Shown here piece after piece: positions 4 through 13,635 of a stretch of 25,299 bases of DNA. Position numbers and translations under genes: made by a program. The notes beneath the pieces were generated by a model that searched no databases, was not told the DNA's origin, and saw nothing but the letters and a program-made list of their open reading frames with translations. Within the stretch, counting starts at the first letter, position 1; each line of letters opens with the position of its first letter. The stretch is from a virus. The DNA is taken from positions 1-25,299 of the IMG/VR virus record IMGVR_UViG_3300012016_000039. One strand, given 5' to 3'.

Positions 4-87
4 AGCAGGATACCGCAAAAGCGGCTGGTCCTAATCAAAGCAAACGTGTAAATAACCGCAAACTTTTGATAGAGGAGCGGCTATTTT
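4..87 (+). ncRNA. sRNA S1, family A putative antitoxin (cognate of T1)
   Basis: AGCAGGATACCGC-AAAA-GCGG 5' hairpin, ACCGC...GCGGCT terminator-like stem plus T-run; 5' part nearly identical to S13; promoter lies before the window start. Confidence 0.7.
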
Positions 88-167
88 ATTAATTCTTTAA
101 TTATTTTAACTATAAATAAAGAGTTAACAACAATCTGAGATATAATAAAAATATCATTCAGACTCAT
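81..167 (-). CDS. T1 small hydrophobic peptide, putative type I toxin (MSLNDIFIISQIVVNSLFIVKIIKELIK, 28 aa)
   Basis: Manual translation; SD GGGGGTGAT; TATAAT at 225-230 (-); anti-SD stem in the UTR; convergent with S1. Confidence 0.75.
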   Translation of the reverse strand: MSLNDIFIISQIVVNSLFIVKIIKELIK

Positions 168-266
168 TATATCACCCCCTTTAAAAGGAGAGTGACCAAC
201 CGCCCCGGACATCCTGCTTATCTTATTATAAAACATTGACATTTAGTTTTAAAGTGATACAATAAT

Positions 267-349
267 AGCGTGACTCGTTTGCGGGTCGTTATATTAATCG
301 TTTTTAGTTATTATTATAACAACCACATTCACAGTGCGGTTGCTTTTTT
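267..349 (+). ncRNA. sRNA S2, family B orphan antitoxin-like RNA
   Basis: TTGACA(236)-16-TACAAT(258); 5' hairpin CTCG-TTTG-CGGG, middle stem GTTATA/TATAAC, terminator CAACCAC...GCGGTTG-T6; no toxin 5' half downstream. Confidence 0.7.
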
Positions 350-370
350 AAAATAAAGTGATATAATAAG

Positions 371-452
371 AGCGTAGTCCATTACGGGCTCGTTTTTCAA
401 GAAAGATTAATTTCTTTTATTACGTCCACGACTGCGACGCGGGCGTTTTTTT
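371..452 (+). ncRNA. sRNA S3, family B putative antitoxin (cognate of T2)
   Basis: TATAAT at 362-367 with -35-like TTGCTT supplied by the S2 terminator; AGCGTAGTCC...GGGCT hairpin; terminator ACGTCC...GGGCGT-T7. Confidence 0.7.
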
Positions 453-517
453 ATAAAAGAAATTATTATTATTATTTTTATGATAATATCTAATATATCT
501 TTTATAATTTGGAACAT
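407..517 (-). CDS. T2 small hydrophobic peptide with basic tail, putative type I toxin (MFQIIKDILDIIIKIIIIISFIKKRPRRSRGRNKRN, 36 aa)
   Basis: Manual translation; SD AGAGGTGAT; TATAAT at 593-598 (-); ORF runs antisense through the S3 terminator. Confidence 0.75.
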   Translation of the reverse strand: MFQIIKDILDIIIKIIIIISFIKKRPRRSRGRNKRN

Positions 518-638
518 TCAATCACCTCTTCCCTACCTTAAATTAAGGTATAGAGAAAAAATGAACCCGCAATCACGAACTACGCTAAACCTATTATAAA
601 TTATTGACAAACGAATATGAACTAACTAAAATACAAAA

Positions 639-3343: not shown

Positions 3344-3363
3344 AAAAGAGGTACAATAGTAGC
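3330..3363 (+). repeat. Promoter repeat TTGACAAAAATTAAAAAAGAGGTACAATAGTAGC, copy 1
   Basis: Identical to 3570-3603; near-identical to 18950-18983 and 19212-19245; TTGACA-16-TA(C/T)AAT. Confidence 0.9.
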
Positions 3364-3445
3364 AGGACGGCACAGAAACGGCAAGTCCTAATTAATGAAG
3401 TTATTATGACCGCTTACTTACTGTACAAGAAGCGGTTACTTTTTT
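3361..3445 (+). ncRNA. sRNA S4, family A putative antitoxin (cognate of T3)
   Basis: AGCAGGAC...GTCCT 5' stem; ACCGCTT...AAGCGGT terminator plus T6. Confidence 0.7.
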
Positions 3446-3501
3446 GTAATCAGAAATATTAAAAGTAATATTAAGAATAATAAAACTAAATTCCAATTCA
3501 T
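3436..3501 (-). CDS. T3 small hydrophobic peptide, putative type I toxin (MNWNLVLLFLILLLIFLITKK, 21 aa)
   Basis: Manual translation; SD GGAGGTGA sequestered in CTCCAA-CA-TTGGAG; TATAAT at 3559-3564 (-). Confidence 0.75.
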   Translation of the reverse strand: MNWNLVLLFLILLLIFLITKK

Positions 3502-3569
3502 TCAATCACCTCCAATGTTGGAGAGTGACTAGCCGCTTCCGGACATCCTGCTCATTTAATTATAATTGC

Positions 3570-3603
3570 TTGACAAAAATTAAAAAAGAGGTACAATAGT
3601 AGC
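3570..3603 (+). repeat. Promoter repeat copy 2
   Basis: 34-nt exact direct repeat of 3330-3363. Confidence 0.9.
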
Positions 3604-3674
3604 GTGACCTGGGTATGGGTTCATATTTTCACTTTTAATATTACTACCGTGATTGAAGCACGGTAGATTTTTTT
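3601..3674 (+). ncRNA. sRNA S5, family B orphan (array unit 1)
   Basis: AGCGTGACCT...GGGTT 5' hairpin, ATATT/AATAT middle stem, CTACCGTG...CACGGTAG-AT7 terminator. Confidence 0.7.
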
Positions 3675-3694
3675 GAAAAATATGGTATAATAAT

Positions 3695-3774
3695 AGCGTG
3701 ATTCGTTTAACGGATCGTTATAAGTTTATATTTATCGTTATAACAACCGTGTTTGTGGCACGGTAGATTTTTTT
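3695..3774 (+). ncRNA. sRNA S6, family B orphan (array unit 2)
   Basis: TGGTATAAT at 3683-3691; GATTCG...CGGATC hairpin; GTTATA/TATAAC stem; ACCGTG...CACGGT terminator plus T7. Confidence 0.7.
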
Positions 3775-3795
3775 AGAATAATATGATATAATAAT

Positions 3796-3869
3796 AGCGT
3801 GACTCGGGAACGGGTTCATTATATTGTTACTATAATTACTACCGTGGTGTAAGCACGGTAGATTTTTTT
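3796..3869 (+). ncRNA. sRNA S7, family B putative antitoxin (array unit 3, cognate of T4)
   Basis: TGATATAAT upstream; same three-hairpin layout as S5 and S6; overlapped antisense by T4. Confidence 0.72.
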
Positions 3870-3944
3870 ATGAGTTCTAAAGAAACTCAGAATTTGTAAT
3901 ATCAATAAGATGATATTCAAAATTTGAATAATCTTATCTCTCAT
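3819..3944 (-). CDS. T4 small hydrophobic peptide, putative type I toxin (MRDKIIQILNIILLILQILSFFRTHKKIYRAYTTVVIIVTI, 41 aa)
   Basis: Internal ATG of track ORF 3819-4010 with SD AGGAGGGGTGA; promoter TTGATA(4048)-17-TATACT(4025). Confidence 0.78.
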   Translation of the reverse strand: MRDKIIQILNIILLILQILSFFRTHKKIYRAYTTVVIIVTI

Positions 3945-4051
3945 AATCACCCCTCCTTTCACTGACAGACCGTCAGATTTGAAGGAATGAACCCGTGCAA
4001 CCCAAATCACGCTAAAATTAGTATAGAGCGTTAATCAAAAACTATCAATTT

Positions 4052-8508: not shown

Positions 8509-9495
8509 ATGGCAGATTATCAATCAGTACACTCAGGTGTAAATATAGACGATGCAGTAACTTCAGTATTAAACGGAACCGCTGGTATTCAGGGCGTGAA
8601 GGTGAATGGGACGGATTTAACACCTGATAGTGGGAACAAAGTCAATGTAGTAGTGCCAACACTTTTGCAGACCACTGGAACTTCTACAACGAGTACTATG
8701 TCACAAAATGCTATTACAACATCTCTTGCACAAAAAGCTGACACTAGCGATCTGAGCCAGGTTGCAACTACTGGTGCATATTCTGATTTGTCTGGAAGGC
8801 CGAATTTGTCTGCTGTTGCAACTACAGGAGCTTATTCGGATCTAAATGGAAAACCAAATTTAGCAACAGTTGCTACTACTGGTGCGTATGCAGATTTGAC
8901 TGGCGCACCAACAGTACCATCAGTTACCCAAAATACTGGTACTTCGACAACAAGTGTTATGTCACAAAACGCAGTCACAGTTGCACTTGGTGCTAAGGCG
9001 GATACTAGTAGTTTGGCAACGGTCGCAACTACCGGAGCATATTCCGATTTATCAGGCACACCAACGGTCCCGTCAGTTGTCCAAGCAACTGGTACTTCAA
9101 CTGCAAATGTTATGTCACAAAATGCAGTAACACTATATTTAAACAATAAAGCTGATTCAAGCAGTCTGGCAACTGTTGCTACCACTGGTTCATATAACGA
9201 TTTATTAAACAAACCCAGCGTTGCAACCAAAAATACGTATACTGCAACATTTTATTCCAATAGTTGGTCCGCAAATGCACCCTATACTCAAACGGTATCA
9301 GTTTCTGGGATATTGGCTACAGACACACCGATTACGGATATTGTATTGTCAAATTCCTCTTCTACAGCAGCTCAAGAACTTAGTAGTTGGGGAAATGTTA
9401 GTAAAATCACGACGGCTGCTAATGAAATTACCGCTACTTGTTTTGATGAAGTCCCAACCGTAAATTTACATATTCAAATGTTGGTTATTAGATAA
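8509..9495 (+). CDS. Tail fibre-like protein with internal repeats
   Basis: 5x L..VATTG(A/S)Y.DL...P and 3x Q.TGTST...MSQNA.T repeats; C-terminal SANAPYTQTVSVSGI...DTPI domain; SD AGGAG. Confidence 0.75.
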   Translation: MADYQSVHSGVNIDDAVTSVLNGTAGIQGVKVNGTDLTPDSGNKVNVVVPTLLQTTGTSTTSTMSQNAITTSLAQKADTSDLSQVATTGAYSDLSGRPNLSAVATTGAYSDLNGKPNLATVATTGAYADLTGAPTVPSVTQNTGTSTTSVMSQNAVTVALGAKADTSSLATVATTGAYSDLSGTPTVPSVVQATGTSTANVMSQNAVTLYLNNKADSSSLATVATTGSYNDLLNKPSVATKNTYTATFYSNSWSANAPYTQTVSVSGILATDTPITDIVLSNSSSTAAQELSSWGNVSKITTAANEITATCFDEVPTVNLHIQMLVIR

Positions 9496-9929
9496 TGTTA
9501 TATAGCCAAAAAATCACAATATTTAACTTTATTGATTCTTCCCAACAATATCACAGTGAAGTTTTAAATAATGTAGAATACCAACAATCATATGCTAATG
9601 AGCGTACACTTGGATTTGACGAATCTATCGACCATCTTATTGTTTTAATCAAATTCAAAGTAGTAAATGATATGAAACAAACTTTAGATGGTAAAAATTT
9701 TTATTTGCCAAACGAGTTTGCAACACTTAGTGACAAAACAAACGCATTTACATTCCAGACACAGCGTGATTTTGTTGCACTTGGTGATTTTTCAAATTAT
9801 GCATTTACTGATTTAGAAACATTCAAAAATGCATTCCCAAATAATATTTTTATTATTAATTTGTGGCGTGAATATCTGAGTGTGTTACCGCACTGGGAAA
9901 TCACAAGTCTAAGGCATATGGGGCGCTGA
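9495..9929 (+). CDS. Head-closure / neck protein (A118 gp9-like)
   Basis: ITIFN...YHSEVLNNVE...FTF...DFVALG...LPHWEI pattern; ATG overlaps the fibre stop codon (TAATG). Confidence 0.6.
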   Translation: MLYSQKITIFNFIDSSQQYHSEVLNNVEYQQSYANERTLGFDESIDHLIVLIKFKVVNDMKQTLDGKNFYLPNEFATLSDKTNAFTFQTQRDFVALGDFSNYAFTDLETFKNAFPNNIFIINLWREYLSVLPHWEITSLRHMGR

Positions 9930-11664: not shown

Positions 11665-11697
11665 CCTTGACGGATTTGTAGTTTGAGGTATAATAAA

Positions 11698-11789
11698 GGC
11701 AGGATAACCGCTATAGCGGTTAGTCCACATAGATTCAGCATTTGATTGTTTTATAATCGCTTGCTTCTTCCACAAGCAGCGGTTATTTT
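11698..11789 (+). ncRNA. sRNA S8, family A putative antitoxin (cognate of T5)
   Basis: TTGACG(11667)-16-TATAAT(11689); AACCGC-TATA-GCGGTT hairpin; ATAATCGCT...AGCGGTTAT terminator. Confidence 0.7.
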
Positions 11790-11848
11790 CTTAGCAGCAA
11801 AAGTATTATTAATAAAATTAAAAATATCAACAGTAAATCTGCTGTCAT
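11783..11848 (-). CDS. T5 small hydrophobic peptide, putative type I toxin (MTADLLLIFLILLIILLLLRK, 21 aa)
   Basis: Manual translation; SD AGGAGGTG inside CTCCTTTTAAAGGAG stem; TATAAT at 11908-11913 (-). Confidence 0.75.
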   Translation of the reverse strand: MTADLLLIFLILLIILLLLRK

Positions 11849-11925
11849 AATCATCACCTCCTTTAAAAGGAGAGTGACTAACCGCCTTGGGACATCCTGC
11901 CGTTAATATTATAAAAAACTATAAA

Positions 11926-11970
11926 CTATTTAACAATATATTGAAAGATTTATAGTTTGTGATGTAATAG
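11926..11970 (+). repeat. 45-bp promoter-containing direct repeat, left flank of the dam block
   Basis: 40/45 identical to 13028-13072; a shorter related copy lies at 13333-13371. Confidence 0.8.
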
Positions 11971-11971
11971 A

Positions 11972-12052
11972 GACACGGCTTTGAATGGGCCGCTATGATT
12001 ATTCTTTTATTATAATAATAACAACCACATCGGTAGTGTGGCTGTTATTTTT
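11972..12052 (+). ncRNA. sRNA S9, family B antitoxin-like RNA whose toxin gene is 5'-truncated
   Basis: TTGAAA(11941)-16-TGTAAT; GGCTT...GGGCC hairpin; AACAACCACA...TGTGGCTGTT terminator; antisense frame KEHKNNSHTTDVVVIIIIKE* matches the T10 C-terminus. Confidence 0.62.
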
Positions 12053-12149
12053 GTGCTCTTTTTCTGCATTCTTGCGATTGGCTGCGAAAGAATATGCGAC
12101 AAAACATGCTAAGACATCAAACGTTGACCAAAGATAGGAGACGCGCATT

Positions 12150-13035: not shown

Positions 13036-13072
13036 CAATATATTGACAAATTTATAGTTTGAGGTATAATAG
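13028..13072 (+). repeat. 45-bp promoter-containing direct repeat, right flank of the dam block
   Basis: Partner of 11926-11970; contains TTGACA(13043)-16-TATAAT(13065). Confidence 0.8.
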
Positions 13073-13073
13073 T

Positions 13074-13152
13074 AGCGCGCCTGTGGAGCACGGGTTCATT
13101 ACTAAATTTGTATTTTGATAATTACTACCGTGATTTGAGCACGGTAGTTTTT
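13074..13152 (+). ncRNA. sRNA S10, family B putative antitoxin (cognate of T6)
   Basis: 5' hairpin CCTGTG-GAG-CACGGG; CTACCGTG...CACGGTAG-T5 terminator. Confidence 0.72.
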
Positions 13153-13230
13153 ATGATGAGTTCTAAAGAAACTCAGAATTTGCAATATCAATAAAATGAT
13201 ATTCAATATTTGAATAATCTTATTACTCAT
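13102..13230 (-). CDS. T6 small hydrophobic peptide, putative type I toxin (MSNKIIQILNIILLILQILSFFRTHHKNYRAQITVVIIKIQI, 42 aa)
   Basis: Manual translation; SD AGGAGG; TATAAT at 13309-13314 (-); close paralog of T4. Confidence 0.78.
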   Translation of the reverse strand: MSNKIIQILNIILLILQILSFFRTHHKNYRAQITVVIIKIQI

Positions 13231-13372
13231 AAACATCCCTCCTTTCACTAGCCAAACAAGCTAGAGTGGGAGAAATGAACCCGTGCATACCACAAACACG
13301 CTGAGACTATTATAGAGCACTATAAATGTTCAAACAATATATTGACGGATTTATAGTTTGTGGTATAATAGT

Positions 13373-13462
13373 GGCATGACTCGTAAGCGAGTTCATCGTA
13401 AAATATTGAGCATTTTATTTACGACTCCCACGCCGTTTTCGTGGGGGGACGCTTTATTTTTT
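13373..13462 (+). ncRNA. sRNA S11, family B putative antitoxin (cognate of T7)
   Basis: TTGACG(13342)-16-TATAAT(13364); CTCG-TAAG-CGAG hairpin; CGTAAA/TTTACG stem; CCCACG...CGTGGG terminator. Confidence 0.7.
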
Positions 13463-13520
13463 CTATGATTTGAATAAATCTAAAGATTATATTCAAAATT
13501 AATAGTAAAATATTAAGCAA
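13419..13520 (-). CDS. T7 small hydrophobic peptide, putative type I toxin (MLNILLLILNIIFRFIQIIEKIKRPPTKTAWES, 33 aa, TTG start)
   Basis: Manual translation; SD GAGGTGA; TATAAT at 13596-13601 (-). Confidence 0.68.
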   Translation of the reverse strand: MLNILLLILNIIFRFIQIIEKIKRPPTKTAWES

Positions 13521-13635
13521 CTAAATCACCTCACTTTCTCCTTAAACATACAGGGGAAAGTACGATGAACCCAACGAACAAATCACGCCGAGACTATTAT
13601 AAAAAACTTTAATTTTTTTTACAATTGGAGTAATT

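Follow-up and report, generated by a model that had tools for sequence, protein, structure and literature searches.

Leader repeats point to a 5′–3′ closing helix in ten type I toxin–antitoxin-like modules of a viral record

Type I toxin mRNAs are generally recognized to have long-distance interactions between the two ends of the message (PMC8594479). In bsrG mRNA, nucleotides 1–35 pair with nucleotides 232–262 to form helix P1, with the stem-loop of the Shine–Dalgarno sequence (SD) on top (PMC3834814). The antitoxin RNA SR4 is complementary to the bsrG 3′ region, and its binding makes nucleotides 1–33 single-stranded (PMC3834814), lengthens SD sequestration from 4 to 8 bp and leads to decay by RNase III, with first contact at the SR4 terminator loop (PMC3834814; reviewed in PMC6562991). 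Here we describe ten type I toxin–antitoxin (TA)-like modules, M1–M10, in the IMG/VR virus record IMGVR_UViG_3300012016_000039, analysed at its full length of 25,299 bp (the window). In these modules the first ~30 nt of the predicted toxin mRNA repeat the start of the cognate antitoxin-like small RNA (sRNA), and sequence comparison supports their pairing with the last ~30 nt of the same mRNA in an imperfect closing helix of 20–27 bp. We consider it likely that this fold-back is a closing helix of the bsrG kind, displaced by the antitoxin sRNA.

Each module carries, on one strand, a small open reading frame (ORF; 21–43 aa) that is hydrophobic and then basic, with a strong SD, downstream of a purine-GC start whose −10 box lies 6 nt upstream (5 or 6 nt in M10). 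The opposite strand has a consensus sigma-70 promoter and a predicted transcript of ~75–95 nt, which has a hairpin at its 5′ end and stops at an intrinsic terminator. The two transcripts converge, such that the sRNA falls entirely within the 3′ part of the mRNA span. The sRNA promoters match the consensus at 11–12 of 12 positions, and the five toxin promoters found by scanning at 10 of 12. Hydrophobic peptide, cis-antisense sRNA, sequestered SD and stronger antitoxin promoter, the general features of type I TA systems, are thus all predicted here. Two classes can be told apart: class I (M1, M3, M5 and M9) starts with AGCAGGA, encodes peptides of 21–28 aa and has its stop codon at the sRNA terminator, and class II (M2, M4, M6, M7, M8 and M10) starts with AGCGTRR or AAGGTATGG and encodes peptides of 33–43 aa. 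The class II ORF crosses the complement of the sRNA terminator and, in the five modules measured, stops 20–36 nt from the sRNA start.

The modules share with the prophage-borne bsrG/SR4 pair a small hydrophobic peptide, a convergent antitoxin RNA over the mRNA 3′ end and a long 5′–3′ helix with an SD-sequestering stem-loop. As with SR4, and judging by the predicted transcripts, the antitoxin's complementarity to the mRNA 3′ region takes in the 3′ strand of the helix. They differ in scale, with mRNAs of ~190–230 nt (bsrG, 296 nt) and sRNAs of 75–95 nt (SR4, 180 nt), and in layout: no canonical terminator stem-loop of the mRNA's own was found behind the helix, the sRNA gene begins where the helix ends (that of SR4, 34 nt farther on), and ten modules share one 25-kb phage fragment. 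At its gathering thresholds Rfam returned no match in the window. Under permissive thresholds, BsrG (RF01412) was the top sub-threshold match on the toxin strand, at M9, M5, M4 and M1. In the alignments, the modules have counterparts to the outer helix of the model, to the hairpin embedded in its 3′ strand and to its SD hairpin, and at M4 the model terminator falls on the complement of the terminator of the orphan sRNA upstream. These alignments suggest for class I either a remote relationship to bsrG mRNA or a close analogy to it in structure. Membership of the BsrG family is not established, given an RNA score below threshold and peptides that fall into no Pfam or NCBIfam family.

Other Bacillus subtilis pairs, txpA/RatA, bsrE/SR5 and yonT/SR6, likewise come from prophages or prophage-like elements, place the antitoxin over the mRNA 3′ end, hold the SD in a short GC stem and act through decay triggered by RNase III (PMC6562991). 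Unlike in bsrG, no conformational change accompanies antitoxin binding in txpA and bsrE (PMC6562991), and no similarity of the modules to these three pairs was detected by sequence or with Rfam. In par of Enterococcus faecalis plasmid pAD1 (Fst RNA I/RNA II), the transcripts also converge, with a bidirectional-terminator region and the SD in a 5′ structure; there, however, RNA II is complementary to the 5′ region of RNA I through direct repeats, whereas the sRNA here has the same sense as the leader.

A wobble-biased leader repeat and the closing helix

The repeat was first noticed in an initial annotation made from sequence alone, whose quoted sequences and coordinates proved correct; in M1 it relates the sRNA start at position 4 (+) to the toxin mRNA start at position 218 (−). 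As that annotation had claimed, all ten leaders repeat the 5′ end of their cognate sRNA, with 22–26 identities per pair over ~30 nt. The duplex formed by leader and mRNA 3′ end is predicted at −33 to −44.5 kcal/mol, against about −12 to −18 kcal/mol (standard deviation ~3) for shuffled leaders. Because the real energies lie so far below those of the shuffles, the repeat is well beyond chance.

We globally aligned each sRNA gene with its mRNA over the first 32 nt of both. Across the ten pairs, sRNA-to-mRNA transitions comprised 15 C>T and 12 A>G changes against one T>C and no G>A (27:1). The same alignments contain ~27 transversions, most of them central, in the sRNA hairpin loop, or past the end of the similarity. 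The initial annotation had put about 20 of 22 substitutions in the two favoured classes; among transitions the bias is stronger than that, but as a share of all substitutions the figure was too high. Formal alignment, named beforehand as an analysis that could overturn the strand bias, retained it. The direction of the changes is informative. An sRNA C that is U in the leader faces G at the mRNA 3′ end, and an sRNA A that is G in the leader faces U, so that either way a G–U pair is kept; in the opposite-strand helix the same change gives an A·C mismatch. In M10, encoded on the other DNA strand, the changes run the same way from sRNA to mRNA. This excludes a mutational bias tied to the replication strand, which was considered as a source.

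To the window modules we added related IMG/VR loci, found with the class I leader pattern, with a pattern for the hairpin of anti-SD and SD in which the helix was left unconstrained, and with a peptide-alignment search. Among the toxin alignments, the M4-type one returned only one locus, and that of all class II toxins lacked any stretch of sufficient conservation for a search. Filtering at 90% identity left 37 non-redundant modules, window and IMG/VR loci combined. New leader variants in this set include GCACGAC, GCACGGT, GCAAGAAT, AGCGTGGCC and GGCGGTAAGGGC. The bias held, with 52 C>T and 47 A>G against one T>C and two G>A (99:3), and pairing-compatible changes were in excess in 34 of the 37 modules, with an excess of the reverse kind in none. 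The first detector had accepted G–U pairs on the scanned strand; a strand-symmetric repeat, which accepted identity or any transition and oriented modules by the hydrophobic ORF only, gave 69:10 (p about 6e-12). Most of these ten incompatible changes lie upstream of mRNA +1, in promoters, and this upstream region serves as an internal control because the bias ends where the RNA ends.

Minimum free energy (MFE) folds of the full-length mRNAs, from +1 to the complement of the repeat start, closed 5′ to 3′ in all ten modules, with 10–27 such pairs, as the initial annotation had anticipated in asking for them. The closing helix begins at mRNA nt +1, contains a central internal loop and several G–U pairs, and abuts the anti-SD/SD hairpin. 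In every window module the toxin-strand duplex is stronger than its opposite-strand counterpart, and in the larger set this is so for 36 of 37 (means −35.8 versus −28.4 kcal/mol).

Covariation gave a second line of evidence. Across 21 full-length class II mRNAs, 83% of alignment cells are paired, compared with 36–45% when the 3′ partner is slid by 1–3 columns; changes on both sides occur in 14 pairs, versus 4–8 in the slid alignments, and none of 500 shuffles matched the covariation score. Among the 16 class I mRNAs, 97% of cells are paired (16–54% when slid) and both-side changes number 7 (0–2 when slid), with G–C, C–G and A–U alternating at position 5 and U–A and C–G at position 8. RNAalifold, run without an input structure, recovered the 5′–3′ helix as the consensus in both classes, together with the anti-SD/SD hairpin in class I and a terminator-complement hairpin in class II. 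The module-specific letters that the initial annotation saw shared within pairs are part of a leader and 3′ end that co-vary in both classes. Wobble bias, the stronger toxin-strand helix, compensatory changes, RNAalifold consensus and MFE folds all argue for RNA-level selection on the toxin strand, as had been proposed. That the retained G–U pairs imply 5′–3′ pairing was also proposed; the fold-back itself is supported, although the argument was incomplete as it stood, since a local 5′ hairpin tolerates G–U pairs too. That reading has since been set aside, as discussed below.

Within class I, the continuous helix is the better-supported conformer, with alternative conformers likely alongside it. 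In the rows for M3 and the related locus L012, compensatory changes keep the continuous helix and an alternative internal partner fails. That partner is a BsrG-like internal helix in which the leader's GCGGUUA pairs with UAACCGC after the stop codon; failing in these two rows, it is the less supported arrangement and may represent an alternative conformer.

Probable antitoxin competition, transcript ends and rival explanations

Since the 3′ strand of the helix is complementary to the beginning of the sRNA gene, a leader that pairs with it necessarily resembles the sRNA. That the sRNA competes for this same 3′ segment, as the initial annotation suggested, follows from the geometry, and displacement has a precedent in bsrG/SR4 (PMC3834814). 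Being a perfect complement, the sRNA would outcompete the leader for the 3′ strand; both this competition and the switch that it would operate are inferred by analogy. The SD itself sits in a local anti-SD hairpin directly on the closing helix, and neither blocking nor removing the 3′ strand is predicted to free it. In the thermodynamic model, blocking the sRNA-complementary part lowers the probability of an unpaired SD in all ten modules. We also looked for a second sRNA site in the leader, as in par and SprA1, and found complementarity no better than in shuffles (z 0 to +1.5). Because the SD is sequestered locally and the sRNA and leader have no extra complementarity, the closing helix is probably not a translational lock of the hok type.

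The helix also bears on where the transcripts begin and end. The repeat starts exactly where the 6-nt rule places mRNA +1. On the sRNA side, only 3 nt separate the −10 box and the repeat (in M10, 1 nt), and sRNA +1 therefore probably falls ~3 nt inside it; examples of promoter regions are 219–232, 358–370, 13060–13073 and 13303–13316. The −10 box of the M1 sRNA is beyond the window edge, and its promoter was seen in the relative L005. With sRNA +1 inside the repeat, the outermost helix pairs use the complement of the discriminator of the sRNA promoter, so that for a full helix the toxin transcript must run at least into that discriminator. These outermost pairs show wobble and compensatory variation, and in class II the stop codons, where their distance was measured, directly adjoin the helix. 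Downstream of the class I 3′ hairpin comes an AU-rich stretch complementary to the sRNA −10 box, and in M2, M4 and M10 the terminator of an upstream orphan sRNA supplies, through its complement, the first toxin-strand hairpin after the helix; orphan sRNA cassettes may thus double as terminators of toxin mRNAs.

A fold-back of this kind could have other roles. In hok/Sok (plasmid R1; fbi/tac) and aapA1/IsoA1 (Helicobacter pylori), a 5′–3′ interaction that is likewise supported by covariation makes a stable closed form (PMC3834814, PMC8594479). There the fold-back occludes translation, 3′ processing removes it and the antisense RNA binds the 5′ region, whereas the modules here sequester the SD locally and their antisense RNA covers the 3′ strand of the helix. 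The modules could nonetheless resemble these systems in holding an inert storage form that 3′ trimming activates, with the sRNA acting mainly on the processed mRNA. The recurrence of long-distance interactions in type I toxin mRNAs (PMC8594479) is in keeping with such a form, and trimming back to structure is plausible where no defined terminator follows the helix. We nevertheless think this unlikely: removing the last 30 nt is predicted to open the SD in none of the ten modules, so that 3′ pairing is not what occludes the start; trimming would remove the target of an sRNA that overlaps the 3′ end; and the antitoxins of Hok and AapA bind the 5′ region instead. Somewhat less probable still is an early stop of most toxin transcripts, for instance at the complement of a bidirectional sRNA terminator, with fold-back confined to a read-through minority. 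The sRNA terminators do have A-rich 5′ flanks, which on the toxin strand become a hairpin followed by a U-rich run, and one such site, a weak one in the M8 coding region (19051–19031, −), was called terminator-like; it was the only such call on the toxin strand between ORF and sRNA start. But the class II ORF runs through this hairpin and stops close to the sRNA start, so a functional class II mRNA must pass the terminator complement, and the full-length form must matter, since the outermost helix pairs are under selection.

Two further readings dispense with long-distance pairing. In one, sRNA and mRNA share a stabilising hairpin at their 5′ ends and the G–U bias reflects maintenance of the leader hairpin. 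The sRNA start does fold stably (mean −8.4 kcal/mol across the 37 modules), C>U and A>G changes in a stem also yield local G–U pairs, and 63 of the 99 compatible transitions fall at sRNA-stem positions. Yet at positions unpaired in the sRNA's own fold, the same set has 36 compatible transitions and one incompatible. Leader hairpins are moreover weak, averaging −4.2 kcal/mol and being less stable than the sRNA's in 33 of 37 modules; in the window they range from −0.8 to −5.9 kcal/mol, against −6.8 to −13.4 kcal/mol for the sRNA 5′ ends. Independent hairpins, finally, would have no need of shared module-specific letters, which nonetheless co-vary. We regard this reading as very improbable. The remaining one, to which we give hardly any credence, treats the repeat as a DNA-level inverted repeat without RNA function, left by module building or copying or produced by gene conversion between the two promoter-proximal regions. 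The −10 boxes at both ends are similar, and modules and orphan sRNA cassettes have clearly been duplicated and shuffled within the phage. A DNA repeat should show no strand preference, however, and the differences favour toxin-strand pairing in both alignment sets; the repeat also begins at the predicted mRNA +1, with the two promoters out of register (6 versus 3 nt), and the bias is gone upstream of +1.

Several points weigh against displacement of a bsrG-like closing helix, the reading that we favour. The modules are paralogues, so their event counts are not independent. The class I mRNAs have a local 3′ hairpin, the complement of the sRNA 5′ hairpin, that competes with the inner helix and is equally conserved, and the MFE structures of M1, M5 and M9 contain only 12–14 long-distance pairs. 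Blocking the 3′ strand is predicted to affect the SD only slightly in most modules (in M10 the unpaired probability falls from 0.63 to 0.02). Start sites and 3′ ends of the toxin mRNAs are predicted, and past the helix no canonical terminator was found on the toxin strand. The BsrG scores, at 21.6–31.1 bits, are far under the gathering score of 55, and the toxicity of the peptides is putative.

Modules, orphan cassettes and the viral record

Coordinates of the modules and associated features are collected in Table 1.

Table 1. Predicted toxin–antitoxin-like modules and associated features in the window. Module spans run from predicted mRNA +1 to the complement of the repeat start.
Feature	Position	Strand	Details
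M1 (class I), toxin mRNA span	4..218	−	Predicted +1 at 218; repeat-start complement at 4
M1 helix 5′ strand, mRNA nt 1–30	189..218	−	Near-copy of sRNA gene start; duplex −40.0 kcal/mol versus shuffle mean −18.5
M1 anti-SD/SD hairpin, CACTCTCC...GGGGGTGAT	172..195	−	Directly 3′ of helix strand; in MFE folds; kept in class I consensus
M1 peptide ORF, 28 aa, hydrophobic	81..167	−	Stop included; no Pfam/NCBIfam family
M1 helix 3′ strand	4..33	−	Complement of sRNA gene nt 1–30
M1 antitoxin-like sRNA	4..90	+	5′ hairpin, then terminator overlapping toxin stop codon; +1 probably ~3 nt inside
M2 (class II)	371..586	−	5′ strand 557–586, 3′ strand 371–400; sRNA + from 371
M3 (class I)	3361..3552	−	5′ strand 3523–3552, 3′ strand 3361–3390; sRNA + from 3361
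M4 (class II)	3796..4013	−	5′ strand 3984–4013, 3′ strand 3796–3825; sRNA + from 3796
M5 (class I)	11698..11901	−	5′ strand 11872–11901, 3′ strand 11698–11727
M6 (class II)	13074..13302	−	5′ strand 13273–13302, 3′ strand 13074–13103
M7 (class II, TTG start)	13373..13589	−	5′ strand 13560–13589, 3′ strand 13373–13402
M8 (class II)	18981..19194	−	5′ strand 19165–19194, 3′ strand 18981–19010
M9 (class I)	19243..19435	−	5′ strand 19406–19435, 3′ strand 19243–19272
M10 (class II, inverted)	21732..21964	+	5′ strand 21732–21761, 3′ strand 21935–21964; sRNA − from 21964
Orphan sRNA cassette	267	+	Without own toxin
Orphan sRNA cassette	3601	+	Without own toxin
Orphan sRNA cassette	3695	+	Without own toxin
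Orphan sRNA cassette	~11972	+	Without own toxin
Orphan sRNA cassette	~22070	−	Without own toxin
BsrG match at M9	19243–19435	−	31.1 bits; exact module ends
BsrG match at M5	11692–11907	−	23.9 bits
BsrG match at M4	3744–4016	−	22.8 bits; includes orphan sRNA terminator complement
BsrG match at M1	74–206	−	21.6 bits

The peptides are putative toxins. Eight of the ten (all except M6 and M7) were scanned against Pfam and NCBIfam, and none reached the cut-off for a family; the M10 peptide has four unnamed homologues among 5.8 billion proteins. In class II, the C-terminal residues (KK-x-x-R...T-V-V-I-I) are set by the complement of the terminator hairpin and its U-tract, a frame that is open in six of six modules; overlaps between ORF and terminator include 3816–3870, 13100–13150, 19001–19060 and 21880–21933. 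Three orphan cassette regions, at 267–349 (+), 3601–3770 (+) and 21982–22098 (−), lie directly upstream of the cognate sRNAs of M2, M4 and M10. Another, at 11960–12055 (+) in the gap between M5 and dam, has a promoter, the start AGACACGGC and a terminator at 12025–12041, with no toxin opposite. With ten type I TA-like modules and at least five orphan antitoxin cassettes in its intergenic gaps, this 25-kb record is unusually dense in such elements.

The record is a whole virus entry with 33% G+C and an estimated completeness of 65%. It encodes ParA, DnaB, an SPP1-type portal, a capsid protein and a Dam methylase; the presence of ParA and DnaB means that it may be a phage-plasmid. The nearest named relatives of the portal protein are in bajarodcaudo virus 3 (47%) and an Acutalibacter phage (37%), among phages of gut or faecal Firmicutes, and from the neighbours of portal and ParA we judged the host to be gut Firmicutes-like. 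A DnaB search of genome contigs gave a sole match, to Flavobacterium (35%), and no protein identical to DnaB turned up in an exact look-up. A near-identical relative is a 40.5-kb IMG/VR contig (source of loci L005, L009 and L014), and a megablast search with 8 kb of the window found no match among GenBank phages.

Similar convergent modules occur at 9377–9609 and 19606–19855 of Bajarodcaudo virus 3 (PQ006094.1), a complete published phage genome. They have the inverted repeat of leader and sRNA start and a small hydrophobic ORF, and carry no toxin–antitoxin annotation; one contains a G>A change, opposite to the bias. A third module type, with a 40-aa peptide, was seen in IMGVR_UViG_3300012979_000008 (locus L016, 41–259, −), where the leader GGCGGTAAGGGC and the sRNA AGCAGTAAGGGC show the repeat with the same A>G wobble bias.

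A possible displacement mechanism and its meaning

By analogy with bsrG/SR4, the closed form would protect both ends of the mRNA and keep the message stable. The sRNA might first touch the exposed loop of the terminator-complement hairpin, which is seen in the MFE folds, and could then zip into a duplex of 75–95 bp, a likely RNase III substrate, expelling the leader. The leader so released would be unstructured, as the C>U and A>G changes that keep the long helix break the local hairpin, and its release may make SD sequestration slightly tighter or leave the 5′ end open to a 5′ exonuclease. The wobble bias could then be read as the footprint of three constraints: the long helix is kept, it stays weaker than the sRNA duplex, and the leader hairpin remains weak.

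A more speculative extension, which we put forward tentatively as possible but less probable than its negation, sees strand displacement as a ratchet in which the antitoxin is a molecular mimic of the leader and C>U and A>G ‘detuning’ sets three outcomes at once. If true, the helix would form, would always lose to the perfectly matched sRNA, and the expelled leader could not refold into a protective hairpin. Beside cleavage by RNase III, antitoxin binding would then have two effects: the 5′ end would lie open to 5′ exonuclease, and SD occlusion would become tighter. As a corollary, a helix reaching ~3 nt beyond the likely sRNA +1 would mean that the toxin is transcribed through the antitoxin promoter.

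The modules are previously unannotated, and the kind of regulation is known from bsrG/SR4, with no new principle. Collectively, ten paralogous modules and their relatives point to a 5′–3′ closing helix under strand-specific selection at the RNA level, with ~100 compatible against 3 incompatible transitions. A design of helix P1 and antitoxin displacement, experimentally shown only for bsrG/SR4, would thereby extend to unannotated peptide/sRNA families of gut Firmicutes phages. Such modules escape annotation based on proteins and Rfam, and may be found and oriented by a simple signature: the sRNA start recurs, inverted and wobble-biased, at mRNA +1.

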